Below are positions 3,404-54,869 of a stretch of DNA of 64,000 nt, piece by piece. Below the pieces are notes generated by a model. It ran no database searches, had not been told where the DNA came from, and saw nothing but the letters and a program-made list of their open reading frames with translations. Source of the stretch: Bacillota bacterium. Its GTDB lineage: Bacteria > Bacillota > Sulfobacillia > JBFLWA01. The position numbers were made by a program, and so were the translations under genes. The stretch spans positions 76,759 to 140,758 of the forward strand of contig JBFLWA010000004.1 of NCBI GenBank assembly GCA_040758135.1. Reading direction: 5' to 3'. Within the stretch, counting starts at the first letter, position 1; each line of letters begins with the position of its first letter.

Positions 3404-5839
3404 TTAACGGAACTCGCCCATCGGGTTATATCGCTTGAGCAGGGAGGAATTGGTGACCACTGAGACCGAACTGAAGGCCATGGCCGCGCCGGCCAGGATC
3501 GGGCTGAGTAACCCAGCCGCAGCCACCGGAATCCCCAGGGTGTTATAAATCAGGGCCCAGAACAGGTTCTGCCTGATCTTGCGCATGGTCATCCGGCTCA
3601 GCTTGATAGCGGCAGCGATCCCCCGCAGGTCGCCCCGCATCAGGGTGATGTCAGCAGCTTCCATGGCCACATCGGTGCCGGTGCCGATGGCCATCCCCAC
3701 ATCAGCGGTGGCCAGGGCCGGCGCATCATTGATCCCATCGCCGACCATGCCCACTACCTTGCCGGCCGCCTTCAGCTTGGCTACCTCGTTGGCCTTATCT
3801 TCGGGAAGGACCTCGGCCAGGATTCGGTCGATCCCCACCTGCCGGGCGATCGCCTCGGCGGTGCGCTGGTTGTCGCCGGTGATCATGATTACCTCGATCC
3901 CCATCTTCCGCAGAGCCTCCACCGCCGCACGAGAGGTCGCCTTGACCGTATCAGCCACCGCCACCACCCCGGCCAGCTGCCCATCAATGGCGACCAGCAT
4001 GGCGGTCTTGCCCTCCCCTTCCAGCCGCTCTACATCAGGCAGAATGGCGGCCAGGTCGATCTGGTTTTCGGCTATCAGGCGACGGGTGCCGATTAACACG
4101 TCCCTCTCGCCTACCCGGGCCCGAACCCCGCGGCCGGGGATTGCCTCAAACTGGTTTGCCTCGGCCAGCTCCAGCCCCCACTTTTGGGCAGCGGCAACGA
4201 TTGCCTGGGCCAGCGGGTGCTCGGAACCCCGCTCGGCCGAGGCCACCAGCCGGAGTAGCTCCCGCTCGTCGCCAGTGGTAGGCAGCACATCGGTCAGCTC
4301 GGGCTGGCCCTTGGTGATGGTCCCGGTCTTGTCCAGGACCACCGTGGTCAGGCTGTGGGCCTTCTCCAGGTGTTCTCCGCCTTTGATCAGGATCCCGTTC
4401 TCGGCACCCCGCCCGGTACCGACCATGATAGCGGTAGGGGTAGCCAGCCCCAGGGCGCAGGGGCAGGCGATGACCAGGACGGCCACGGTGTGCAGGAGCG
4501 AGTTAGTCACCGATGCGCCCAGGAAGAAGTACCAGACGACAAAGGTCAGGAGCGAAATGCCGACCACCGCCGGGACGAAATAGGCGGAGACCACATTGGC
4601 CAGGCGCTGGATGGGTGCCTTCTGCCCCTGAGCCTCTTCCACGATGCGGATTATCTGGGCCAGGGCGGTGTCCCGCCCCACCCTGGTGGCTCGAAACTTC
4701 AGCGCCCCATAGCGGTTGATGGTGGCTCCCACCACCTCGTCGCCTATCTTCTTGTCCACCGGCAGGCTCTCGCCGGTGAGCATCGACTCGTCCACGGTAG
4801 AGTTGCCCTCGATGATCTCACCATCTACAGGGATCTTCTCTCCCGGGCGGACGATGATGATCTCACCCACCTCGACCTCCTCCACCAGGACATCCAGCTC
4901 GACACCGCCCCTCACTACCCGAGCCGTCCGGGCCTGTAGCCCCATGAGCTTTCTGATGGCCTCGGAGGTCCGGCCCTTGGCCACCGCCTCCAGCAGCTTG
5001 CCCAGAAGGACCAGGGTGATGATAATGGCGCCGGTCTCGTAGTAGACGTGATGGTAGCCGATGGATCGTCCCCAGACGGTCACCCACAGGCTGTAGAAAT
5101 AGGCGGCCGAGGTTCCCAGGGCCACCAACACCGACATGTTAGCGCTGCCGCCCCGGACCGACTTGTAGCCATCGACATAGAAATGCCAGCCAGCCATGAA
5201 CTGGACCGGGGTGGCCAGCACCAGCTGCAGCCAGGGGTTGGCCAGCAGCGGCAGGGGGTTGACCGTCATGATCTCGAAAGTCATCTGGAGGAGCATGGGA
5301 AAAGAGAGTATCGCCGAGATGACCAGCAGCCGCTTCTGGCGGCGGATCTCGGCCTCGCGAGCCCTCCGCTCGGTATCCTCTTCTCCGGGAGTAGCCGGGT
5401 CAACCGCCTGGTAGCCAGCCTCGGCTACCGCTTTGGTCAGCTCCGGTGCTCCGGTGACCATTGGCAGATACTCGACCGAGACCGTCTCGGTGGCCAGGTT
5501 GACCACCGCGCTCACCACGCCGGGTGCCCGGCTCAGGGCCTTCTCCACCCGGGCCGCGCAGGCCGCGCAGCTCATACCGACGATGTTCAGCCGGGTCTTG
5601 GCTATGGCCAGATCGTAACCGATGGTCTTGACCGCCTCGTGCAGCTGCCTGATGGTGACGCTCTCATCGTGGACTACTATGGCCTTTTCGGTGGCCAGAT
5701 TGACAGTGGCCGTACTGACTCCGGGCAGCTCAGCCAGGCCCTTCTCCAACCGCTTGACACAGGCAGCGCAGGTCAGGCCGGTAACAACCAGAGTGGTCTT
5801 AACTCGTTCGCTCAGTCCGGGACCCTCCTTTGCCAGCAC
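3404..5839 (-). CDS. copA: copper-translocating P1B-type ATPase
   Basis: 811-aa ORF with two N-terminal HMA domains ([16 protein letters not shown]), TGES, the CPC motif ([11 protein letters not shown]), DKTGTIT and GDGINDAP. The exact start codon is uncertain: the TTG at 5839 has a poor RBS. Confidence 0.95.
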
Positions 5840-5870
5840 CTAGCTCGATAAATCCGCTAAACGTTCTCAC

Positions 5871-5929
5871 ATACCCTACGGGGGTATCGTACTTTAGTCC
5901 ATCATACCGCTACCTCCGGCCGCTGTCAA
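5871..5929 (-). promoter_or_regulatory. copA promoter with CsoR-type operator
   Basis: On the minus strand, TTGACA (5929-5924), a 17-nt spacer, then TATGAT (5906-5901). The palindrome ATACCCTACGGGGGTAT (5871-5887) lies just downstream of the -10 element and matches my recollection of the CsoR operator upstream of Bacillus copZA. Confidence 0.6.
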
Positions 5930-6037
5930 CCAATGTTTTCTCAACGCGCAAGGAGACCACCGCTCCAACGGTAGTCTCCCCTGTTTCCCATCGCCTCTGC
6001 CCACCTCCGTACGGAGGCGGGTTTAAGCCAGTGTCAA

Positions 6038-7450
6038 TTAGCGGCGCGTCGGCCGGGTCTGGTGGATGGCGTGGCCCAGGATATCCTCGGCCGCCTCGGC
6101 CACCGCCTCGGGTAAGGTCGGGTGGGCATGGATGGTCCCGGCGATCTGCTCGGCGGTAAGCCCGTGGTTAACCGCCAGCGCAATTTCGGCAATCAGGTCA
6201 CTGGCGTGGGGGCCCATTACCTGGCCGCCAATAATCCGGCCCGAAGCGGCCTCGGCGACCAGCTTGACCAGGCCATCGGTCTCGCCCAGAGCCATGGCCT
6301 TGCCATTGGCGGCAAAGTTGAACCGTCCAGTGCACACCCCGATCCCCGCCTCAGCGGCACTGGCTTCAGTATGACCGACACTGGCCAGTTCGGGGAAGGT
6401 GAAGACGCAATTGGGGACAACCCGGTAGTCAATGGGCCGCTTACGCCCGAACAGGTTCTCGGCGGCCACGATCCCCTCCATCGAGGCCACATGGGCCAGG
6501 AGGGGTTCACCAATACAGTCGCCCACCGCCAGGATACCAGAGACTGAGGTCTCCAGGTATTCGTTGACCATGATGCCGCGCCGGTCGTACTGGATCCCCA
6601 GGCGATCCAGGTCGAGCCCGCCGAAGAAAGGGCGCCGGCCGGTGGCCAGGTAGACCCTTTCGGTCACCAGGGTCTGGTCCCCCTCGGCGGTAACCACTGT
6701 CACCTCCAGACCGCCGTCGCCCGGAGCGATCTCGGTCACCCGGGCCTCGGTCAGTAGCCTAACCCCGCGCTTCTTGAGCGCCAGGGTAAAGCGCCTGACC
6801 ACATCCTGGTCAAACATAGGCAGAACGCTGGGCAACAGTTCGACCACGGAGACTTCCACTTCAAGGGCGGCGAAGATGGAAGCATACTCCAAACCGATGA
6901 TGCCCCCACCGATGATCACTGCCGACTCTGGCAGCTGGCCCTTGAGCTCTAACGAAGTGCCGAGAGCGGCCGCGTGTTCCAATCCCCTGATGGGCGGGAA
7001 GATGGGCTCAGAGCCAGTGGCAATGATGATCTGAGCGGTCTCGAACTCGCTGTCCCGGCCGTCGCTATTGGTCACCCGGACCCGACCGGCCGCCTCAATC
7101 TGGGCGGTTCCGTGGATGACATCGACCCCGTGGCTCTTGAGCAAGGTACCGATGCCGCGGCGCAAGCGCTCGGCCACCGACAGCGCGTGCTCGAAGACGC
7201 CCGGCGGCCGGCCGCCGAGGCAGTCAAGCCTGGCCAGCCCGAAGGTTTCTACCTCTTTCAGCAAGCCGAAGACCTCGGCCGAGCGGTGCAGGGCCTTGGT
7301 GGGGATACAGCCCCGGTTGAGGCAGGTCCCCCCCAGCTGGTCCTTTTCGATGACCAGCACTCTGGCCCCCAGTTGGCTGGCGCGGATGGCCGCCACGTAG
7401 CCGCCGGGACCGCCGCCGATGATAATCAGGTCACAGTTCAAACTCCTCAC
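6038..7450 (-). CDS. lpd: dihydrolipoyl dehydrogenase (L protein / E3)
   Basis: 470-aa ORF with FAD motif IIIGGGPGGYVAAIRASQLG and redox disulfide GGTCLNRGCIPTK. Its start overlaps the end of the ligase gene; an alternative TTG start lies at 7441. Confidence 0.9.
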   Translation of the reverse strand: MRSLNCDLIIIGGGPGGYVAAIRASQLGARVLVIEKDQLGGTCLNRGCIPTKALHRSAEVFGLLKEVETFGLARLDCLGGRPPGVFEHALSVAERLRRGIGTLLKSHGVDVIHGTAQIEAAGRVRVTNSDGRDSEFETAQIIIATGSEPIFPPIRGLEHAAALGTSLELKGQLPESAVIIGGGIIGLEYASIFAALEVEVSVVELLPSVLPMFDQDVVRRFTLALKKRGVRLLTEARVTEIAPGDGGLEVTVVTAEGDQTLVTERVYLATGRRPFFGGLDLDRLGIQYDRRGIMVNEYLETSVSGILAVGDCIGEPLLAHVASMEGIVAAENLFGRKRPIDYRVVPNCVFTFPELASVGHTEASAAEAGIGVCTGRFNFAANGKAMALGETDGLVKLVAEAASGRIIGGQVMGPHASDLIAEIALAVNHGLTAEQIAGTIHAHPTLPEAVAEAAEDILGHAIHQTRPTRR

Positions 7451-8261
7451 CTCTTCCCTCGAGATTCCAGCGGTCGGTGCCGTACTTGCCGGCCACCAGC
7501 CGGTCAGCCAGCCGGCGCTCCTCGGGGGTCAGCCCATCGGGAACCAGTGGAGCCCCCAGCGCCTCAGCGAACCCCGCCTCCACCGCTACGGCTACCTCCT
7601 CCGGTCCCGGGCTATACCCCAGCACCCGTCCGAGCCAGCTCATGCGGGTCGCGGCCAGCCGCCGGGCGACCGCGGCCGTTATTCCGAGGCTGCCGGCCAG
7701 CCGCTCTACATCGAGATCGATGAGGATCGACCCGTGCTGCAGAAGAGCTCCCCAGCGGCGAACCTGCGCGCTGCCCACCAGCTTACGCCCTTCGGCCATT
7801 AGCTCGTGGCGGGATGGGGCATCGAAGCAGGCAGCGGTCTCGCCCCGGCCGTGCAGGGCCGGCTCGGAGAGGGACAACCGGGCCCCGAGGAGGGTCAGAC
7901 CCCGCACCAGGCATAGACTGAGCCGGTAGTAGGACTGCTCCACCGACCCCCTGGCCAGCGGATGGTCGTCGGGCAGGGCCACGCTGTAGGTGAGCTCCCG
8001 GTCGTGCATTACTGCCCGCCCTCCGGTGGGACGCCGGACCAGCCCCAGCCCGTGGCGGGCCAGGTAGTCGCGGTCTACGGCCCGCGCGGTGCGCTGGAAG
8101 TAACCCAGGGAGACGGTAGCCGGCTCCCAGCGGTAGAGGCGGAGCGTAGGCGGGCAATCGCCGCGCCCCACGGCCCGGGCAATGGCCTCATCGACTGCCA
8201 TGTTTTCCGCCCCGGGGCGGGCGCCGTCCCGGATGATTCGCCACGTCTCTTTTTCACTCAA
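7431..8261 (-). CDS. lipoate-protein ligase family protein (LplA/LipM-like)
   Basis: Carries the conserved N-terminus WRIIRDG..PGAENMAVDEAI and RLYRWEPATVSLGYFQ. The track ORF extends to 8450 but would overlap the upstream gene. I place the start at TTG 8261-8259, preceded by GGGAGGG, giving an 8-nt overlap with the upstream stop. Confidence 0.8.
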   Translation of the reverse strand: MSEKETWRIIRDGARPGAENMAVDEAIARAVGRGDCPPTLRLYRWEPATVSLGYFQRTARAVDRDYLARHGLGLVRRPTGGRAVMHDRELTYSVALPDDHPLARGSVEQSYYRLSLCLVRGLTLLGARLSLSEPALHGRGETAACFDAPSRHELMAEGRKLVGSAQVRRWGALLQHGSILIDLDVERLAGSLGITAAVARRLAATRMSWLGRVLGYSPGPEEVAVAVEAGFAEALGAPLVPDGLTPEERRLADRLVAGKYGTDRWNLEGRGEEFEL

Positions 8262-9243
8262 AGGCAATCCCTCCCGCGGCCAGCTGGAAGGCCTCCTCAG
8301 CCTCCTCCGGCGCCAGTGGCACCGGGTAGTTGTAGGGGACTTGCCCTGGACGCTCGTTGTAGTAGGGGCGGTTGCAGTCCCGGCATCCGCTGGTGCGAAA
8401 GGCCTCGCCCCCGTCCAGGGCAGCCCGCAGGGCCTGTCGTCCGGCCTCACCGGGGCCCCAACCCCGCAAGACCGCCAACCGGCCGTCGGTGAACCCCAGT
8501 TGGTCGGCGGCGACCTCCCTAACCGCGATCAGCCAGCGCAAGAGCTGGACACGGCGGTAATAGTCCAGGGGCGGCGACGGACGCCCGGCCAGGCGAGTCC
8601 CCCGCACCGGGGTGAAGGCGAAGAGCCCGGCGGTGACCCCCCAGCCTTGCAGCCGGAGCCAGAGGCGGGCCAGATCCTCCTCGGTCTCTCCCAGTCCAGC
8701 GATGAAGTGGGTGGTGATCCGGCCCGGAAAGCGCTGGGCCGCCTCCTCCAGCGCGGTCAGCCCGGCTTCCAGGTCGCCGCCCTTGACCGCGTGGTAGAGC
8801 TCGGGCGTGGCGGCATCCAGCGGGACGGCCACCCGGTCTGCCCCCGCCTCCAGCAGGGCTGGGATAGTTCCAAGCTGGCTGGGGTGGAGCGACAAAGAGA
8901 CCGCTCGCCCGGTGAACGCCATGGCCGCCACCAGCCGGGGAAGACGCCGGGCCACGCCCGGCTCGCCCACCACCTGCAGGCACACCCGGCGGAGCCGCTG
9001 GCCGCCCTCGGTCGCCAGGGCTTCCTCGACTTGGGACAGGGGAAACTGGGGCCAGCTGACCCGGGAGAGCAGCCCGGTCTGGGCCTGGCTCGCCCGGGCC
9101 TGGGCGCAAAAAGCGCAGTTATTGGCGCATTGCTCCCCGATCATCAGGTAAGCCGTGGTCGGCCAGGCCGCCACCCGGACCCGGCTGAGTCCGAGGGCGG
9201 CGGCGGTGCCGGCCGAGACGCGCACCATGGTATCGGCGGTCAT
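8254..9243 (-). CDS. radical SAM protein, LipS1/LipS2-like candidate
   Basis: Single CX3CX2C motif (CANNCAFC). ATGA overlap with the upstream radical-SAM gene (ATG 9243-9241, TGA 9242-9240). I could not see a LipA-type RSSY C-terminus. Confidence 0.65.
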   Translation of the reverse strand: MTADTMVRVSAGTAAALGLSRVRVAAWPTTAYLMIGEQCANNCAFCAQARASQAQTGLLSRVSWPQFPLSQVEEALATEGGQRLRRVCLQVVGEPGVARRLPRLVAAMAFTGRAVSLSLHPSQLGTIPALLEAGADRVAVPLDAATPELYHAVKGGDLEAGLTALEEAAQRFPGRITTHFIAGLGETEEDLARLWLRLQGWGVTAGLFAFTPVRGTRLAGRPSPPLDYYRRVQLLRWLIAVREVAADQLGFTDGRLAVLRGWGPGEAGRQALRAALDGGEAFRTSGCRDCNRPYYNERPGQVPYNYPVPLAPEEAEEAFQLAAGGIAFE

Positions 9244-10148
9244 AGGGCACAGCACTCCTCGCCCCAGGCAATGGCCAGTCCCAGGCCGGCAGCGAATTCC
9301 TCCAGCCCGGCCGCGGGCTGGACAATGGCATTGATCCCGGCCCGCACCGCCAGCTGGTCCAGCTCCTGCCGGTAGCGGCCGCCAGGGCGCAGGCAGCCCA
9401 GGAGTAGCCGGGTGCCGGGAAGCCGGAGGCGGGCCTCGGCCAAGAAGGCGGCCACCTCGGCCAGGTCGGGGCGGGGCCGGTCAGCGTAGGCCGTCCCCGG
9501 GGTGGGGATAAAGACAATGAAGACCAGTACCTCAGGGGGCTCGGCGGCCAGGCGCTCCAGGGTGCCCCATTCTCCGTCAATGGCACCACCCTTAAGCCCC
9601 AAGCAGACATGGGGCACCGTCCGCACCCGCTGGCTCAAGGCGCGATAGGCCCGCCAGTAAGCATCGCCGGAGACCGCCAGACCATAGACCTCCCGGATGG
9701 TCTGGTCATCAGTGACCAGATCGAAGGAGACCGTGTCGGCCAGCCCCTCCAGCTCGGGCCAGCGCTCCACCGGGAAGAGCCCGACATGGAAGTTGAGCCT
9801 AACCTGCCGGGCCAGTCGGGCCAGTTGGGTCCGGTGCGGCGAGAAGTGGAGGCTGCCGTCGGCGGCGCAGCCTCCACTCACCAGTACACTGGAAATGCGT
9901 CCGGCTTCGGCCTCCTGCCCGACTCGCTCCAGATCCCCCATGGGTAGCAGGTAGCGTCCGCCGCAGTGGGCGCAGTTCAGGGCGCAGTCGGAGCCGGTGA
10001 GGCTCACCGCCCTGGTACGCCCCAGTCGGATCAGAGTCAGGAGCGGGGCGAAGTTGGCCTCCCGCACCGCCCAGGCCCGGGCCAGGGAGTCGCCGCCACC
10101 CCCCGGTGGGGGCGACGGCGCCCGAAGGCTCACTGCCCGGCCCGCCAC
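9240..10148 (-). CDS. radical SAM protein, LipS1/LipS2-like candidate
   Basis: Single CX3CX2C motif (CALNCAHC). Start is GTG 10148 or GTG 10133; the latter gives a GTGA overlap with the gcvPB stop. Confidence 0.65.
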
Positions 10149-11614
10149 CGGATTACCGGATTGCGGGCCGCGCCCACATCGTCCAGCCGTCCCACCGGAG
10201 TGGTCAGTGGAGCGCCAGTCACCTGCTCCGGGCTGTTCTCGGCCTCACGGGCAATGGCAATCATGGCCTCGGCAAAGGCGTCCAGCGCCGCCTTGGGCTC
10301 GGTCTCGGTCGGCTCAATCATAATAGCTTCTTCGACGATGAGGGGGAAGTAGATAGTAGGGGCATGGACGCCGAAGTCCAGCAGACGCTTGGCCATGTCG
10401 GCAGTATGCACGCCGAGCTTGGCCTGGCGCCGCCCCGAGAGTACGAACTCGTGCTTACAGATGCGGTCATAGGGCAGGTCGAAATGGGGTCGCAACTTCT
10501 TCAGCAGGTAATTGGCGTTGAGGATGGCATCCTCGCTCACCTGCCGCAGCCCGTCGGGGCCGAGGCTCAGGATATAGGCCCAGGCCTTGACCACTACGCC
10601 GAAATTGCCGTAGAAAGCGTGGACCCTGCCGATGGATTGGGGGCGGTCATAATCGAGGGCATAGCCGTCATCGCGCCTGACCACCACCGGCACCGGGAGG
10701 AAGGGGAGCAGTTCCTGCTTGACGCCGACCGGCCCCGAGCCGGGACCGCCGCCGCCGTGCGGGGTGCCGAAGGTCTTATGCAGGTTCAGGTGGATCACAT
10801 CGAACCCCATGTCGCCAGGGCGGGTGATCCCCAGGGTGGCATTGGCATTAGCCCCATCGTAGTAGAGCAGGCCCCCGGCCTCGTGGACCAGGTTGGCTAT
10901 TTCGACGATGCGCTCTTCGAAAAGCCCCAGGGTGTTGGGGTTGGTCAGCATCAGAGCCGCCGTCCTGGGCCCCACCTTGGAGCGGAGGTCGTCCAGGTCG
11001 ACATTGCCCCGATGGTCCGATCTCACCTGGATCACATCGTAGCCGCAGAAAGCGGCGCTGGCCGGGTTAGTGCCGTGGGCCGAATCGGGGCAGATCACCT
11101 CGGTCCGCCCGCCCTCGCCCCGGGCCTCGTGGTAGGCCTTGATCAGGAAGAGCCCGGTCAGTTCGCCGTGGGCACCGGCCACCGGTTGCAGGGAAAAGCC
11201 ATCCATGCCGGTGATCTCGGCCAGCCACTCCTGGGTTTCGAACATCAGCTCCAGGGCCCCCTGGACCATCGACTCCGGCTGGTAGGGATGGAGCCGGGCG
11301 AACCCGGGGAGCCGGGCGATATCTTCGTCAATCTTGGGGTTGTACTTCATAGTGCAGGAACCCAGCGGATAAAAACCGGAGTCAACCCCGTGGTTCAGGC
11401 GCGAGAGCCCGGTATAGTGCCTAACCAGCTCGATCTCGCTGACCTCGGGCAGGCCCGGTACCTGCGACCGCAGGTACCCAGCGGGGAGCAGCTCCTCCAG
11501 GGGGCGCTCCGACACATCCAGCGGGGGCAGACTGAAGGCGGTACGGCCAGGCTGGCCCAGCTCGAAGATGAGTGAATCGCCCCACAGATCGGACCGGCGA
11601 CCAGTCATAGCCAT
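10130..11614 (-). CDS. gcvPB: glycine dehydrogenase (decarboxylating) subunit 2
   Basis: 494-aa ORF with PLP-lysine region [18 protein letters not shown]. Sits in canonical order after gcvPA. Confidence 0.95.
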
Positions 11615-12963
11615 CCCTCCAGTGCCCCGACCAGACGGTCGAGTTCGGCTTTAGTCCTGACCTCGGTGACGCAGAAGAGCTGGAGCCCGGACAGGCCGGG
11701 GCTGTCGCTCCCCAGGTCGTAACCGCCAATAATCTTCTGCTCCAGGAGCCGCTGGTTGATCTCGGCCACCCGGAAGTTGGTATCCACGGCGAACTCCTTG
11801 AAAAAGGGCGCCTCGAAGGCCAGAGGCAGGCCGATCTGACCCAGGCGGTCGGCCACGTAGTGGGCCTTATGCAGCGAGGCTTCGCCCACCTGCCGCAACC
11901 CGGTCGGACCCATGGCCGCAAGGTAGATGGTGGCGGCCAGGGCGCAGAGCGCTTCATTAGAGCAGATGTTGGAGGTGGCCTTCTCCCGGCGGATATGCTG
12001 TTCCCGGGCCTGCAGGGTCAGGACGAAGCCGCGTCGCCCCTCCCGGTCAGTAGTCTGGCCGACGATGCGCCCCGGCACTCGCCGCATCAGCTTCTCGGAA
12101 GCGGCCAGGAAACCCAAGAGCGGCCCGCCGTAGGAAGTGCTAAGCCCCAGCCCCTGGCCTTCGCCGACCACGATATCGGCCCCGTACTCGGCCGGGGCGG
12201 CCAGGACGGCCAAGGAGACCGGGTCGACCACGGCCACCGCCAGGGCTCCATGGCGGTGGGCCAGTTCGAAAGCTTCTTTGGCCTCTTCCACACAGCCAAA
12301 GAAGTTGGGGGTCTGGATGATCACCGCCGCGCACTGGTCATCGATGGCCAGGTCCAGGCAGCTGAGGCAGGTAACCCCCTTGGAGCGGCTGATCTCCACC
12401 TCCCCCACCTGTACCCCGCGGGCCCAGGCGTAGGTGGCTAAAACCCGGCGGTAGGCCGGATGAACGCTCTTGGAGACCAGCACCTTGCTGCGGCGAGTGG
12501 CGCCGATGGCCATGATCATCGCTTCAGCCACCGCGGTAGCCGCGTCGTACATGGAGGCATTAGCCACCGGCAGGCCGGTGAGCTCCGAGATCATGGTCTG
12601 GTACTCGAAAATGGCCCGCAGGGTGCCCTGGCTGATTTCAGCCTGGTAGGGCGTGTAGGCAGTGTAGAACTCGGAGCGGGAGATCAGGTGCTGGATGACA
12701 CTGGGCGGAAAATGCTCGTAGATACCGGCCCCCAGGAAGGACAGGTACTGGTCGAGGTTGGTATTGCGGTCGGCCAGTTGACGGGCGCGCGCCAGCAGCG
12801 ACGGCTCTGATAGGGCGGCCGGTAGCTCCAGCGGGCGCTGGAGACGGACCTCCACCGGGATATCGGCCAACAGCTCATCCACTGACGAGATACCGATCTC
12901 GGCCAGCATCTCGGCCCGGTCTTGCTGGGTATTGGGAAGGTACCGATAACCGGAAGCTGGCAT
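11605..12963 (-). CDS. gcvPA: glycine dehydrogenase (decarboxylating) subunit 1
   Basis: 452-aa ORF with the conserved [13 protein letters not shown] and the expected operon context. Confidence 0.95.
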
Positions 12964-13358
12964 CAGTGGCCCTCCTCGGCGATGAACTTCTCGTACCCGG
13001 ACGCGTCCATCAGCCCCTCCAGTTCACCCTCATCTTCCAACTCGATGACCAGGAGCCAGCCCTCGCCATATGGATCGCTGTTAATAAGCTCCGGTGAATC
13101 CAGCAGGCTGTTGTTAACCTCGCTGATCCGTCCGCTGACCGGGGCGTAGACATCGGAGACCGCCTTGACCGATTCGATGACACAGACGGAGTCGCCCTTG
13201 CCTACCGTTTCCCCAGCCCCGGGCAGTTCGACGAAGACCACATCGCCCATCTGCTCGGCCGCGTAGTCGGTGACCCCGACGCGGGCCCGGTTCCCCTCCA
13301 GCTTGATCCATTCATGCTCTCGAGTGTACTTCACATCATCCTTGGCCATTCTACTCAC
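12963..13358 (-). CDS. gcvH: glycine cleavage system H protein
   Basis: 131-aa ORF with lipoyl-lysine motif VIESVKAVSDVYAPVSG. Confidence 0.95.
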   Translation of the reverse strand: MSRMAKDDVKYTREHEWIKLEGNRARVGVTDYAAEQMGDVVFVELPGAGETVGKGDSVCVIESVKAVSDVYAPVSGRISEVNNSLLDSPELINSDPYGEGWLLVIELEDEGELEGLMDASGYEKFIAEEGH

Positions 13359-14461
13359 TCCTTCTTATAGGCTTTAGCGTAAAAGGGTGCTTTGACCACC
13401 CGGGCTTCCACCTGCTTACCCCGGATCTCCACCGTCAGCTCGTTACCCAGCTGGCCGTGACCCCGTTCCACCAGAGCCAGGGCCATATTCTTCCCCAGGC
13501 TGGGGGCATAGGAACCCGATGTCACCTGCCCGATCTGCCGGTTGTCGGCGTACACCGGATAACCGGCCCGGGCAATCCCCCGGCCCACCATCTCGAGACC
13601 GATGAGACGGCGGGGAATCCCGGCTTCCTTCTGCGCCCTGAGGGCCTCGGCTCCGATGAAGTCGCCCTTGTCCAGCTTGATGAAATAGCCCAGCCCCGCC
13701 TCGAGGGGCGAGATATCCCGGTCGATCTCGTGGCCATATAGGGGCAACCGGGCCTCGAAGCGCAGCGTATCCCGGGCGCCTAGCCCGGCCGGGAGCAGCC
13801 CGTCGGGCTGGCCGGCAGCCAGGATCGCCCGCCAAAGCCGGGGACCGGCCTCGGGGCGGCAGTAGATCTCGAAACCGTCCTCCCCGGTGTACCCGGTGCG
13901 CGAGATCAGGCAGGGTTCACCGTCGATGACCACTGCGGGACAGCAGTAGAAGAACCGGAGAGAACCAAGGTCGAAATCGGTCAGCCGCTGGAGGATGATC
14001 TCGGCCTTGGGCCCCTGGAGGGCCAGCTCAGCGTAATGGTGGGAGATATCCTCCACCATTACCTTCATCCCCTGGGCCTGCTCCTGCATCCACGCGACAT
14101 CCTTATCGATGTTAGCGGCATTGACAACCATGAAATAGCGCTCATCGCCCAGTTTGTATACAAGGCAGTCGTCGACACAACCACCATCGGGGTAGCACAT
14201 CGGGCTGTAGATGACCTGGTGCAACTCCATGGGAGCCGCATCGTTGGTGATTAGCTTCTGGACCAGTCCCAATGCCGCGGGGCCTTCGATCATCACCTCT
14301 CCCATGTGGGAGACATCGAAGAGACCGGCCGCCTGGCGGGTGGCCTGGTGCTCCTCGATGATCCCCCGGAACTGGACCGGAAGAGCCCAGCCCCCGAAGT
14401 CAACGATCTTGCCCCCACTCTCTTCATACACTTGGTAAAGCGGGGTTTTCTTGAGTTCCAA
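13355..14461 (-). CDS. gcvT: aminomethyltransferase (T protein)
   Basis: 368-aa ORF with a typical GcvT N-terminus (KKTPLYQVYEESGGKIVDFGGWALPVQF). TTG start at 14461, with GGGAGGTGA 7 nt upstream. Confidence 0.95.
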   Translation of the reverse strand: MELKKTPLYQVYEESGGKIVDFGGWALPVQFRGIIEEHQATRQAAGLFDVSHMGEVMIEGPAALGLVQKLITNDAAPMELHQVIYSPMCYPDGGCVDDCLVYKLGDERYFMVVNAANIDKDVAWMQEQAQGMKVMVEDISHHYAELALQGPKAEIILQRLTDFDLGSLRFFYCCPAVVIDGEPCLISRTGYTGEDGFEIYCRPEAGPRLWRAILAAGQPDGLLPAGLGARDTLRFEARLPLYGHEIDRDISPLEAGLGYFIKLDKGDFIGAEALRAQKEAGIPRRLIGLEMVGRGIARAGYPVYADNRQIGQVTSGSYAPSLGKNMALALVERGHGQLGNELTVEIRGKQVEARVVKAPFYAKAYKKE

Positions 14462-14506
14462 CTACCTGTCACCTCCCTGTGGATCTAGCCTGGGGCCTCT
14501 TCTGGC

Positions 14507-14560
14507 AAAAAACAAAAACACAGGAATAAAGCATGCCGCATGAACTGCTCTTTCCCGTGT
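14507..14560 (-). terminator. intrinsic terminator inside the gcvT 5' leader (or terminator of the upstream membrane-protein gene)
   Basis: Minus strand: ACACGGGAAAGAGC, a 14-nt loop, GCTTTATTCCTGTGT, then TTTTTGTTTTTT. This gives a stem of about 14 bp with one bulge and G-U pairs. It lies 46 nt upstream of the gcvT start. Confidence 0.7.
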
Positions 14561-14580
14561 TTCTTCTGGAGTGAGATGAA

Positions 14581-14598
14581 TTGTGCAAATGGTCACAA
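14581..14598. promoter_or_regulatory. candidate Rex operator upstream of gcvT
   Basis: TTGTGCAAATGGTCACAA matches 12 of the 14 defined positions of the Rex consensus TTGTGAA-N4-TTCACAA. Confidence 0.45.
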
Positions 14599-14637
14599 AC
14601 CATAGGCTGTCTCCGGTAGAGACAGACCCGGGTCAAC

Positions 14638-15123
14638 CTAGCCGGTCCTCCTCCGGCCGTGAGCAATCAGGGCTAAGCCGATTCCTATCAGCAGCAGAGG
14701 CCAGATGCGCCCGATAGTAAGCGCCCAGGGGAGACCGAAGTCCCCGAGACTCCCCACCAGGAAGGCCGCGCCCACCACTGTGCAGGCCGTACCCGGAATC
14801 AGCGCCCACCAGGCGCCGCGGACCACCGCCGCCGTGGTGAAGAAGGCCAGTCCGGGAGCGAGTACCCACAGCGCCCACCAGCGCTCCATGGAGTAGCCGG
14901 CCAGAGTCAGGTAGAGTGGGACACTAACCAGGGTGAGGATGCTCCCGGGCAGGATGAGCATGCGCTCCCGGCGACCGCCAACCGCCTGCAGGATGAAGAA
15001 CATCCCCAGCAGGAATGGGATGGCGGCGACCAGGGTCACGCTGAAGGGAAGGAAACCCAGGTTGACCAGGAGGAAGAGCAGGCCAAGCCCGATAAGGACC
15101 AGCCCACTCCAGTTAAACCTCAC
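14638..15123 (-). CDS. small polytopic membrane protein, function unknown
   Basis: 161-aa ORF that is almost entirely hydrophobic helices (LVLIGLGLLFLLVNLGFLPF..., WPLLLIGIGLALIAHG). Confidence 0.6.
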   Translation of the reverse strand: MRFNWSGLVLIGLGLLFLLVNLGFLPFSVTLVAAIPFLLGMFFILQAVGGRRERMLILPGSILTLVSVPLYLTLAGYSMERWWALWVLAPGLAFFTTAAVVRGAWWALIPGTACTVVGAAFLVGSLGDFGLPWALTIGRIWPLLLIGIGLALIAHGRRRTG

Positions 15124-15156: not shown

Positions 15157-16461
15157 CTATTCTTGGCCACCGGCAAATTCTCCTTTTGGCGCCGCGGCTT
15201 TTTCCCGTACCAGCCAGGTAGCGGCAAAGGCCACAACTGACAAAGCCAGGAAGGCCAGGAAGGTGGAGCGGTAGCTCTCCAAGGTGTAGAAACGCATCCC
15301 GTCGGCTATCTGGCCTGTCCAGCCCTGGTCCAGCCAGGTGCCGACCGCCAGGTTGAGTAGAGCGGTACCGATGAAGCCGGCTGAATTCACAAAACTGGTG
15401 GCCATGCCGGAAAAGGCCGGGTGGTTGACCTCTTTTACATTGGCAAAGGTCAAAATAAAACTGATCCCGCCCAAACCCATCATGAAAAAGATGGGAGACA
15501 GCGCGGCCACGGGCGGCTTGCCGCCCGCCACCACCAGGAGGTAGAACCAAAGCAGGGCGACCATCCCGGTCCCGGCCATCATCACCGGCTTCTTGCGGCC
15601 CAGCCGGTCAGAGAGCCAGCCCACCAGGGGCGAACCCACCAGGACACCGGCGGTCAGATAGAGGATGTACTGGGCGGCCTCCGCCTTGGCCATCCGGTAA
15701 GTGTGCATCAGAAACGGCACTCCCCAGAGCCCGGAAAAGGCATTGATGATGCTCATGGCGGAGAAAAGGATGATGAAGTTGGGCCAAGTCGCGGGGTTGG
15801 TGACAATCATCTTCAGGCTCGTGCCCAGGCTGATCCCCTCTCGGTCGGCCCGGGGCCCCTGGGCAGGGTAGCCGGCCGCCTCGGGCCGGTTCCGCACCAC
15901 CAGGTAGATGGCAACCGCTACCGCCACCGAGACCGCGGCGATGGCCAGGAAGGTCGGCCGCCAGCCGACGAAGGTCACCAGCAGAGCCAGCGGAGTGGTG
16001 GCCAAGATCCCACCGATATTGCCCACCACCGAGGTCAGCCCGGAGATCGTGGCGAACTCGCGGGGCCTGAACCACTCGGCTTGGATTTTCAGGGTGGAGA
16101 CAAAAATCACCGAGACGCCCAGCCCCACCAGGAGCCGTCCTACCAGAGCTGGCGCGGGGACTGCAGCAATGGCAAAGAGGAGCGAACCGGCCGCCGCCAC
16201 CAGCATGCCCAGGGCGGCAGTGAGGCGCGGACCGACATAGTCGGCCAGGATACCCGAGGGTATCTGCATGACGGCATAGGCGTAGAAGTACATAGAGGCC
16301 AGGTTGCTGAGGGCGGCGCCGGTCAAACCCAGTTCCCGGGCCAGGTCGTCAGCGACCGCAGCGATGGAGTAGCGGTGAATGAAAACAACCAGGAAGGCCA
16401 CAGCCATCAGAGACCAGATGAGCCATTTGCGGTAATGGATGCTACCGTTCTCGGCGGGCAA
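15157..16461 (-). CDS. MFS transporter
   Basis: 434-aa ORF with about 12 predicted TM helices and a central loop (RNRPEAAGYPAQGPRADREG), the usual MFS two-half organisation. Confidence 0.85.
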   Translation of the reverse strand: MPAENGSIHYRKWLIWSLMAVAFLVVFIHRYSIAAVADDLARELGLTGAALSNLASMYFYAYAVMQIPSGILADYVGPRLTAALGMLVAAAGSLLFAIAAVPAPALVGRLLVGLGVSVIFVSTLKIQAEWFRPREFATISGLTSVVGNIGGILATTPLALLVTFVGWRPTFLAIAAVSVAVAVAIYLVVRNRPEAAGYPAQGPRADREGISLGTSLKMIVTNPATWPNFIILFSAMSIINAFSGLWGVPFLMHTYRMAKAEAAQYILYLTAGVLVGSPLVGWLSDRLGRKKPVMMAGTGMVALLWFYLLVVAGGKPPVAALSPIFFMMGLGGISFILTFANVKEVNHPAFSGMATSFVNSAGFIGTALLNLAVGTWLDQGWTGQIADGMRFYTLESYRSTFLAFLALSVVAFAATWLVREKAAAPKGEFAGGQE

Positions 16462-40024: not shown

Positions 40025-40222
40025 CCGGGTCGAAAAAAACCGGGGCAATACGCGTGCGCAAACAACCAATGGCGCGCTCGAACCTTCTCCCATCCAGACT
40101 GTACTGTCGGCCCCGGAATCTCACCGGATCCTGCCGCCTAAGCGGCTCGCGGGCTCCCTCAAGGAGGTTACCGCCGGTCAGGAATTGGGGGTTTCCCCCC
40201 TCACCATGCCCCGAAGGTAGTA
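40025..40222 (-). promoter_or_regulatory. FMN riboswitch (RFN element) controlling ribD
   Basis: The minus strand reads CTTCGGGGCATGGTGAGGGGGGAAACCCCCAATTCCTGACCGGCGGTAA...AGCCCGCGAGCC...GGATCCGGTGAGATTCCGGGGCCGACAGTACAGTCTGGATGGGAGAAGG. This matches the conserved RFN core blocks. Confidence 0.9.
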
Positions 40223-49311: not shown

Positions 49312-49398
49312 TTGTGAAAGTCTTCACAAATTATTGTTTACAGGCCCCTTTGAGACATGCTAGAATGCATTTAGGGTAGTTTGTGCACATCTTCATAA
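49312..49398 (+). promoter_or_regulatory. hydrogenase-operon promoter flanked by two Rex operators
   Basis: A perfect Rex box TTGTGAAAGTCTTCACAA lies at 49312-49329. The promoter is TTTACA (49337-49342), an 18-nt spacer, then TAGAAT (49361-49366). A second box, TTGTGCACATCTTCATAA (49381-49398), matches 12 of 14 positions. Confidence 0.75.
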
Positions 49399-54213: not shown

Positions 54214-54869
54214 AGAAGAAGCCTGCCGCCGGCCAGACGGCAAAACCAGTTCCCCTGGCGGTGATCAAGCGCCTCCCCCTCTACTACGCCAGGTTGGCCA
54301 GCCTGGCCGAGGCCGGTATCCTGCGCGTCTCCTCCAGCCACCTAGCCCGGCTGGCCGGGGTGACCCCAGCCCAGCTGCGGCACGATCTCAGCCACTTCGG
54401 CTCCTTCGGCCAGCAAGGCTACGGCTACCGCACCCACGAGTTGCAGGCAGCCATCGGGCGCATCCTGGGGCTGGACCGTTCCACCCGGATGGTGCTGGTG
54501 GGGGCCGGCCACCTGGGCCGGGCCCTCGCCAACTACCAGGGTTTCAGGCGGAGACGTTTCTTCCTGCAGGCCATCTTCGACTCCGATCCGGCGCTGGTAG
54601 GCCAGGTTGTCGCCGACCTGACGGTGCAGGAGGCCTCCCAGCTCAGCGACTACCTGGGCCACCACCGGATCGAGATCGGCATCATCGCCGTCCCGGCCGA
54701 AGAGGCCCAGGCGGTGGCTGACCGGCTGGTAGCCGGCGGGGTCAAAGGAATCTGGAACTTCGCCCACCTGCGGCTAAGCGTGCCGGATGATGTCGTGGTC
54801 GAGCAGGTTAACCTCACCGATAGCCTGCTGACCCTGGCCTTCCGCCTGGAGGAAAGGAAAAAGGCCTAA
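54210..54869 (+). CDS. rex: redox-sensing transcriptional repressor Rex
   Basis: VIKRLPLYYARLASLAEAGILRVSSSHLARLAGVTPAQLRHDLSHFGSFGQQGYGY plus a Rossmann GAGHLG. ATGA overlap with the hydrogenase gene. Confidence 0.95.
   Translation: MKKKPAAGQTAKPVPLAVIKRLPLYYARLASLAEAGILRVSSSHLARLAGVTPAQLRHDLSHFGSFGQQGYGYRTHELQAAIGRILGLDRSTRMVLVGAGHLGRALANYQGFRRRRFFLQAIFDSDPALVGQVVADLTVQEASQLSDYLGHHRIEIGIIAVPAEEAQAVADRLVAGGVKGIWNFAHLRLSVPDDVVVEQVNLTDSLLTLAFRLEERKKA

Follow-up and report, generated by a model that had tools for sequence, protein, structure and literature searches.

Among the closest described relatives of the system considered here are those of an archaeon and of Bacillus subtilis. LipS1 (TK2109) and LipS2 (TK2248) of Thermococcus kodakarensis form a two-protein lipoyl synthase (reportedly described by Jin et al. 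in 2020; Neti et al. 2022, PMC9585515), and a LipM-LipA route acting on GcvH was reportedly described in B. subtilis by Christensen and Cronan in 2010. Here we have analyzed 64,000 nucleotides of DNA from a Bacillota bacterium (assembly GCA_040758135.1, contig JBFLWA010000004.1), referred to throughout as the window, in which eight minus-strand genes occur in the order gcvT, gcvH, gcvPA, gcvPB, lipS1, lipS2, a single-domain LplA-family gene and lpd. We consider it very likely that these genes form one transcription unit that specifies a complete glycine cleavage system together with a LipA-independent lipoyl route for its own H protein. The eight-gene module is a correct call of a known system that is common in this lineage, and its linkage was published in 2022, when LipS1/LipS2 were seen by genome neighbourhood network (GNN) to be linked to GcvH, a ligase and a disulfide oxidoreductase, and few archaea encoding LipS1/S2 were found to have an E2 acyltransferase (Neti et al. 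2022, PMC9585515). With that linkage in print, curated models of the enzymes available, and the pathway established by biochemistry in an archaeon and by genetics in bacteria, the locus offers little novelty in itself.

The Thermococcus enzymes provide the reference for the two radical S-adenosylmethionine (SAM) proteins. Thermococcus LipS1 carries its radical-SAM cluster on C27/C31/C34 and an auxiliary cluster on C230, C276, C277 and probably H159; LipS2 carries its radical-SAM cluster on C39/C43/C46 and an auxiliary cluster on C85, C276 and C279; and sulfur is inserted by LipS2 at C8 first and by LipS1 at C6 second (PMC9585515). The window encodes a comparable pair, with one CX3CX2C in each protein and no LipA motifs, with a C-terminal CC pair, an upstream Cys and a conserved His in LipS1, with a C-terminal CxxC and one upstream Cys in LipS2, and with both proteins passing the NCBIfam models built for LipS1 and LipS2. 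Unlike the Thermococcus genes, which lie more than 130 genes apart, the bacterial lipS1 and lipS2 are adjacent inside a gcv operon, and their predicted partner is a single-domain LipM-like protein rather than a heterodimeric LplA/LplB.

A second point of reference is the pathway of sulfur oxidisers, in which LipS1/S2 work with sLpl(AB) ligases (Tanabe et al. 2023, PMC10332631). As in that pathway, lipS1 and lipS2 here stand beside a gene for a PF03099-family enzyme and a client gene of GcvH fold. The differences are that a genuine GcvH, not LbpA, serves as client here, and that LplB domain, lipT and sHdr genes are missing here. That paper also mentions combinations of LipM with LipS1/S2 in Schekmanbacteria, Synergistota and Thermotogota, in which, as we propose here, a single-domain LipM-type enzyme accompanies LipS1/S2 and there is no ligase, so the sulfur would go into a target that had received its octanoyl group from acyl carrier protein (ACP). 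The passage on these combinations names neither Bacillota nor an eight-gene, gcv-embedded layout, and the module described here differs from the combinations as noted there in being its genome's only recognisable lipoylation route. The paper further cites Sporomusa, a member of the Firmicutes, in which lipS1/S2 are linked to canonical lipoate synthesis genes. A search of the supplements of Tanabe et al. 2023 for Limnochordia or gcv neighbourhoods turned up only a list of hidden Markov models (HMMs).

Two further systems share parts of the arrangement. The B. subtilis LipM-LipA route likewise uses a single-domain, GcvH-specific LplA-family octanoyltransferase fed by octanoyl-ACP (PMC6067878), but in the present genome LipS1/S2 replace LipA, and LipL relay and E2 acceptors are missing. 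Thermacetogenium phaeum has a gcvT-gcvH1-gcvPA-gcvPB-lpd-lplA1 operon, that is, a Bacillota gcv operon with its own lpd and a gene of the lipoate-ligase family; as described, however, that operon has another gene order and is without LipS1/LipS2 (PMC12674515).

In the list of open reading frames (ORFs), eight minus-strand ORFs tile window positions 6038-14461 without interruption (13355-14461, 12963-13358, 11605-12963, 10130-11614, 9240-10148, 8254-9255, 7431-8450 and 6038-7450, in the gene order given above). Starts were chosen by Shine-Dalgarno sequence, and each gene has a convincing ribosome-binding site. Thus gcvT (13355-14461) is assigned the start TTG 14461 behind the Shine-Dalgarno sequence GGGAGGTG, and overlaps gcvH by 4 nt if the latter begins at GTG 13358, or is separated from it by 5 nt if the better-placed ATG 13349 is used, as we prefer (gcvH, 12963-13349). 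Next, gcvPA (11605-12963, ATG 12963) overlaps gcvH by 1 nt, and gcvPB (10130-11614, ATG 11608 or 11614) overlaps gcvPA by 4 or 10 nt. The GTG of lipS1 at 10133 shares GTGA with the gcvPB stop (lipS1, 9240-10133), the alternative start at 10148 giving a 19-nt overlap, and the ATG of lipS2 at 9243 shares ATGA with the lipS1 stop (lipS2, 8254-9243). The ORF of 339 amino acids that starts at 8450 is over-extended; we assign the LplA-family gene to 7431-8261, with TTG 8261 as its start, an 8-nt overlap with lipS2 and a product of about 276 amino acids. Lastly, lpd (6038-7450, GTG 7450 or TTG 7441) overlaps the LplA-family gene by 20 or 11 nt. We read these junctions as translationally coupled. The preliminary description of this DNA had reported eight contiguous genes with overlaps of 1-20 nt and no intergenic DNA, which holds save for the possible 5-nt gap between gcvT and gcvH. 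Within the operon, promoter-like and terminator-like matches did not exceed their frequency in shuffled sequence.

Protein families were assigned with Pfam and NCBIfam, GcvT, GcvH, GcvPA, GcvPB and Lpd being judged on equivalog or subfamily cut-offs. GcvT, the aminomethyltransferase or T protein, scores 457 bits against NF001567 (cut-off 300) and 422 bits against TIGR00528 (cut-off 236); GcvH, the H protein, 165 bits against TIGR00527 (cut-off 116); GcvPA and GcvPB, subunits 1 and 2 of glycine dehydrogenase, 635 bits against NF001696 (cut-off 364) and 778 bits against NF003346 (cut-off 441), respectively; and Lpd, the dihydrolipoyl dehydrogenase (L protein or E3), 491.9 bits against TIGR01350 (cut-off 408.8). 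Every component of a glycine cleavage system, T, H, P-alpha, P-beta and L, is thus encoded here and scores above its NCBIfam cut-off. GcvH has the canonical lipoyl-lysine motif ESVKA, in which the acceptor Lys is residue 62 (numbered from ATG 13349), and Lpd has the redox disulfide motif CLNRGC at residues 43-48.

The two radical-SAM proteins are best described by the curated equivalogs for LipS1 and LipS2. The first scores 252.7 bits against NF053742 (cut-off 230) over model positions 5-268 of 268, and the second 325.3 bits against NF053743 (cut-off 270) over model positions 1-292 of 292, while LipS2 reaches only 33 bits against the BioB model (cut-off 225) and 20.5 bits against the canonical LipA model TIGR00510 (cut-off 310). 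The proposal that a LipS1/LipS2-like pair stands here in place of LipA is therefore borne out by HMM comparison: both proteins are above curated equivalog cut-offs, with BioB and LipA far below theirs. A motif scan likewise agrees with the single CX3CX2C and the lack of RSSY first noticed in each protein. The motifs are CALNCAHC in LipS1 and CANNCAFC in LipS2, and neither the N-terminal CX4CX5C nor the C-terminal RSSY of LipA was found in either protein. In LipS1, the radical-SAM cysteines are C50/C54/C57, and C247, C294, C295 and H175 are predicted to be ligands of an auxiliary cluster; all of these residues are invariant in an alignment of 14 orthologues from related genomes. In LipS2 the radical-SAM cysteines are C39/C43/C46, with the same numbers as in Thermococcus LipS2, and the predicted auxiliary ligands C88, C287 and C290 are invariant in an alignment of 16 orthologous sequences. 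Correspondence to the Thermococcus ligands was judged by spacing and published numbering. By analogy with the archaeal enzymes, LipS2 would insert the first sulfur, at C8, and LipS1 the second, at C6.

We searched the whole assembly (2.01 Mb in 40 contigs, 96.6% complete) for other enzymes and targets of lipoylation. At that completeness, the genome gave no match to LipA or to LipB; the LplA/B catalytic domain (PF21948) is present in one copy only, and the sole other PF03099 protein is BirA. The LplB accessory domain (PF10437) and the E2 acyltransferase catalytic domain (2-oxoacid_dh) were likewise sought across the genome and not found. GCV_H has a single match, and the further proteins with biotin/lipoyl-fold matches are one biotin carrier (AMKM motif) and two barrel proteins resembling RnfC_N. 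We note that the latter two are paralogues of about 420-450 amino acids with an RnfC_N/NqrA_N-like barrel-sandwich hybrid fold (C3:142982-144256 and C3:150070-151431), weak biotin/lipoyl-fold matches and no other recognised domain. The genome search for lipA, lipB and a second ligase that had been proposed from the operon sequence thus came up empty. With no LipA, LipB, other ligase or E2 found, the operon would be self-sufficient and its cofactor machinery would have one client; as far as a draft genome can tell, there is no recognisable lipoyl acceptor besides GcvH and no predicted lipoylation route besides the operon.

The identity of the third lipoylation gene is less certain than that of lipS1 and lipS2. 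The PF21948 domain (122 bits) covers nearly the whole of the 276-amino-acid product, yet the protein stays below the cut-off of every NCBIfam model for ligases, LipL or LipB. In an alignment of the protein with 18 homologues, Cys145, in the motif AACFDAPS, is nearly invariant and Lys160, 15 residues further on, is invariant, the pair being conserved in 18 of 19 homologues. Ser occupies the Cys145 position in LplA of Thermoplasma acidophilum (2ARS), and an sLpl-like paralogue from an LbpA-type locus (L039) is without the segment that bears Cys145. Almost all of 7,625 database relatives are 265-290 residues long, and some are named LipM or octanoyltransferase; homologues at about 45-50% identity occur in Bacilli, Kyrpidia and Ferviditalea among them. 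By predicted structure, the protein lies closest to an ESM Atlas cluster labelled 'Octanoyltransferase LipM family protein' (TM 0.92). Ligases and transferases of this kind would not be told apart by fold. LipM consists of one domain and transfers octanoyl groups from ACP to GcvH, its sole target (PMC6067878), and its donor, octanoyl-ACP, should be available because the genome has a fabD-fabG-acpP-fabF cluster. We think that the gene probably encodes a LipM-type octanoyl-ACP:GcvH octanoyltransferase, because Cys145 and Lys160 are conserved, LplB is missing from the genome, fatty-acid synthesis genes are present, and the names LipM or octanoyltransferase are borne by its closest named relatives as well as by the closest Atlas cluster.

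It is possible instead, although we regard it as unlikely, that the LplA-family gene encodes an ATP-dependent octanoate/lipoate:protein ligase acting alone or with an unrecognised helper, in which case free octanoate or lipoate obtained by scavenging would be the starting material, like that of the published sLpl(AB)-LipS1/S2 and Thermococcus pathways. The nearest solved structure is the catalytic subunit of T. acidophilum LplA (2ARS, E 1.8e-24), the top NCBIfam matches are the LplA_large and LplAB models, most public annotations of homologues read 'lipoate--protein ligase family protein', and the LipS1/S2 pathways proven by experiment so far all use a ligase (PMC10332631). The scores against ligase models, however, fall far under the cut-offs (94 bits vs 480 for LplA_large, 82 vs 550 for LplAB and 62 vs 280 for another). 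Archaeal LplA requires LplB to form the acyl-adenylate, and the genome holds no LplB/Lip_prot_lig_C domain anywhere. Furthermore, the conserved Cys145, missing from the sequence of the ligase structure and from the sLpl-like paralogue, fits a thioester transferase, and both ACP and FabF are present. The preliminary description had called the partner an LplA/LipM-like ligase. We take it to be LipM-like, with one domain and a conserved Cys/Lys pair, and we reject an sLpl(AB)/LplAB identity on the LplAB and LplA_large scores and the lack of LplB in the genome.

With a LipM-type transferase as the third enzyme, the proposed route would run as follows. The single-domain LipM-like enzyme would take octanoyl from octanoyl-ACP, a product of type II fatty-acid synthesis, hold it as a thioester on Cys145 and then move it to Lys62 of GcvH. 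The radical-SAM cluster of LipS2 (C39/C43/C46) would abstract hydrogen at C8, and LipS2 would donate sulfur from an auxiliary [4Fe-4S] cluster on C88/C287/C290, as its Thermococcus counterpart suggests. LipS1 (C50/C54/C57, with auxiliary ligands C247/C294/C295/H175) would repeat the reaction at C6 and so finish lipoyl-GcvH, whose dihydrolipoyl arm Lpd would re-oxidise with NAD(H), or reduce in the reverse direction. The core of the original reading, that the operon provides the H protein along with the enzymes that octanoylate, sulfurate and re-oxidise it, is supported by the family scores and the genome search.

Several points weigh against this route as we have drawn it. NCBIfam offers no LipM model that the LplA-family protein passes, and its nearest solved structure, 2ARS, is a true ligase subunit. 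Cys145 and Lys160 have the same 15-residue spacing as C150 and K165 of B. subtilis LipM, residues that are their putative equivalents; a literature search on LipM C150 turned up only work on C150 of LipL. Both the order of the insertions and the sacrifice of the auxiliary clusters are extrapolated from a homologue in an archaeon. Finally, the 3.4% of the genome that is unassembled could hold an unseen LipA, E2 or LplB.

The suggestion that so tight a fusion of cofactor assembly to one client is uncommon does not hold, as it is the majority arrangement among relatives that carry LipS1. Among 41 genomes sampled from the class, LipS1 was above the cut-off in 21, and we fetched 20 loci from other families. 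The order gcvT-H-PA-PB-lipS1-lipS2-ligase-lpd, or as much of it as is visible at a contig end, is present in 19 of these 20 loci, with identities to the window proteins that range, from one protein to another, between about 36% and 70%. All eight genes are also found in four named loci from metagenome-assembled genomes (two 'Dethiobacter sp.', 'Clostridiales bacterium DTU086' and 'Syntrophomonadaceae bacterium'), and a 'Bacillota bacterium' locus shows the part from gcvPB to the ligase gene; the nearest named proteins bear the labels Limnochordales, Dethiobacter, Syntrophomonadaceae and Clostridiales DTU086. In a sample of 401 genomes from the phylum, 101 have LipS1, and gcvPB lies within about 1 kb of lipS1 on the same strand in at least 57 of them, a lower bound that comes from a hand count in which coordinates were compared with the best 150 GcvPB places; gcvPB is clearly not adjacent in 18 of the 101, and 26 were left unscored.

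The phylum sample also includes variants of the module. Some have seven genes and no lpd, some consist of a bare lipS1-lipS2-ligase cassette, and some have the order gcvH-lipS1-lipS2-ligase-lpd in genomes without any GcvPB. We note that the last of these variants was seen in two genomes of one family (L060 from G382 and L061 from G054, at about 6770-11260), where a presumably lipoylated H protein would have an E3 of its own but no P protein. Elsewhere in the phylum there is a second, more distant type of LipS1/S2, with sLpl-like ligases and GcvH-like genes of LbpA type. In a quick tree of LipS1 with SH-aLRT (Shimodaira-Hasegawa-like approximate likelihood ratio test) support, the gcv, gcvH and cassette contexts fall on one side of a branch with support of 99, and the sLpl/LbpA type (support 100) falls on the other side together with an archaeal sequence. 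The gcv-type LipS1 is therefore set apart, within one phylum, from the LipS1 linked to sLpl and LbpA. As side observations, the second type occurs at seven of the loci we collected (L039, L050, L051, L052 and L063-L065), its ligases are without the LipM cysteine, one or two GcvH-like genes, probably for LbpA, are linked to it, and one genome (G010) carries both LipS1/S2 types on a single contig.

Lipoyl synthases in this class may travel with their clients. As the genomes are related, the following numbers are meant to describe a pattern and should not be read as a statistical test: 20 members of the class sample have LipS1 but no LipA, 3 of them with E2 and 17 without, and 17 have LipA, 14 with E2 and 3 without. 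In many of the LipA-bearing genomes, lipA adjoins an E2 gene, and one genome (G018) holds both modules, an eight-gene gcv operon on one contig and an E2-lpd-lipA cluster on another. These occurrences suggest that LipS1/S2 reside in the gcv operons of mostly E2-less genomes and LipA beside E2 genes, which provides a testable hypothesis on substrate specificity. The E2-lpd-lipA cluster lies at positions 5121-8744 of the corresponding stretch (L054, G018:C25:6000-22000), where an E1-alpha gene is found farther on and a gene resembling that for methenyl-tetrahydromethanopterin cyclohydrolase comes directly after lipA.

We consider it very unlikely that GcvH is not the sole client, that is, that the lipoyl group is relayed onward or that LipA or E2 is encoded in the unassembled part of the genome, so that the operon acts as a general lipoate factory as in Bacillus. 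GcvH is a lipoyl relay hub in B. subtilis (PMC6067878), the genome is a 40-contig draft, and three relatives in the class (G017, G029 and G038) have gcv-type LipS1/S2 and E2 but no LipA, so that the module there must serve E2 either directly or by relay. Nevertheless, the genome search recovered no E2 catalytic domain, LipL-type amidotransferase or second PF21948 protein, and E2 is likewise missing from 17 of the 20 LipS1-only genomes.

It is extremely improbable that the radical-SAM pair comprises other sulfur-insertion or maturation enzymes (biotin synthase-like or HydE-like) in a cell that scavenges lipoate: although homologues are mostly entered in public records as 'radical SAM protein', the usual name for LipS1 homologues, or as 'biotin synthetase-like', and LipS2 has its weak BioB match, both LipS equivalog cut-offs are passed, residues that match the mapped Thermococcus auxiliary ligands are conserved, in dozens of genomes the pair is without exception flanked by gcvPB or gcvH on one side and by the ligase gene on the other, and no other lipoyl synthase was found in the genome. 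A BioB or HydE identity was accordingly rejected on model scores.

Taken as a LipM-LipS2-LipS1 module dedicated to GcvH, the locus would represent a clean natural minimal system, with one acceptor, a transferase, a two-protein synthase and an E3, and with no competing LipA, LipB, ligase or E2. It would thus offer handy cognate parts for reconstituting a bacterial LipM-LipS2-LipS1 route with a true GcvH as substrate; we know of no such reconstitution to date.

How the operon is regulated can be considered from the 176-nt leader upstream of gcvT (14462-14637, minus strand), for which we examined the sequence, its fold and the results of an Rfam scan. The leader contains a Rex-like palindrome, TTGTGACCATTTGCACAA, at 14581-14598 and, at about 14507-14560, a long hairpin with a T-run behind it. 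No glycine riboswitch was found at gathering score in the window, and there was no Rfam match at E<=1 in 14400-14700; a glycine riboswitch aptamer lies directly upstream of gcvT in all seven of the relatives that were scanned. Two rex homologues are present on the contig of the window (window positions 54249-54392 and contig positions C4:7210-7347), and a genome-wide scan found Rex-like boxes, some of them perfect, at about 20 places. We note that a cluster of such boxes occurs at window positions 49312, 49381 and 49656, the first being a perfect TTGTGA-N6-TCACAA.

The genome's only glycine riboswitch is a tandem pair on another contig, C7, before a glycine reductase operon (positions 7822-8013, minus strand, of the stretch L076, C7:98000-106231). 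That operon includes grdX, a trxB-trx fusion, a component B alpha subunit of the grdE/grdG family, a grdB-type selenoprotein B and a component C beta subunit (grdC). The selenoprotein B frame stops at 350 amino acids, as expected for a UGA selenocysteine codon. The cell is thus predicted to pair its glycine cleavage system with a glycine reductase, a combination used for glycine disproportionation by Peptoclostridium acidaminophilum (PMC12674515). This gene set would fit glycine disproportionation or the reductive glycine pathway alike. It is conceivable, but in our view quite unlikely, that the ancestral glycine riboswitch of the gcv operon was replaced by a Rex-type, NADH-sensing operator, such that a high NADH/NAD+ ratio would switch the module on and the operon would act as a reverse glycine synthase in the reductive glycine pathway. 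Reverse operation comes into consideration because the riboswitch is found only on the glycine reductase operon, formate-tetrahydrofolate ligase is present, and an acetyl-CoA synthase domain was not found in the genome search. If this were the case, the putative Rex-controlled module would serve a groundwater bacterium not to break glycine down but to supply its reductive glycine pathway. DNA of the window has been detected in groundwater, subsurface and biofilm metagenomes.

At the other end of the operon, the transcription unit probably ends at two strong GC-rich hairpins (5951-6021, minus strand) that lie between the lpd stop and the copA promoter. Neither hairpin has a U-run; the region has a fold z-score of -3.6, and none of 200 shuffled sequences folds as well. 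The downstream neighbour, copA (3404-5929), encodes a P-type ATPase with two HMA domains and has its own near-consensus promoter-like site, TTGACA-17-TATGAT, at 5929-5901. Upstream of the gcvT leader lie genes for a LiaF-like membrane protein (14638-15123) and a transporter of the major facilitator superfamily (15157-16461). We also note that the sole Rfam family at gathering score in the window is the flavin mononucleotide (FMN) riboswitch, which is found at 40078-40222 on the minus strand with a score of 95.9 bits.

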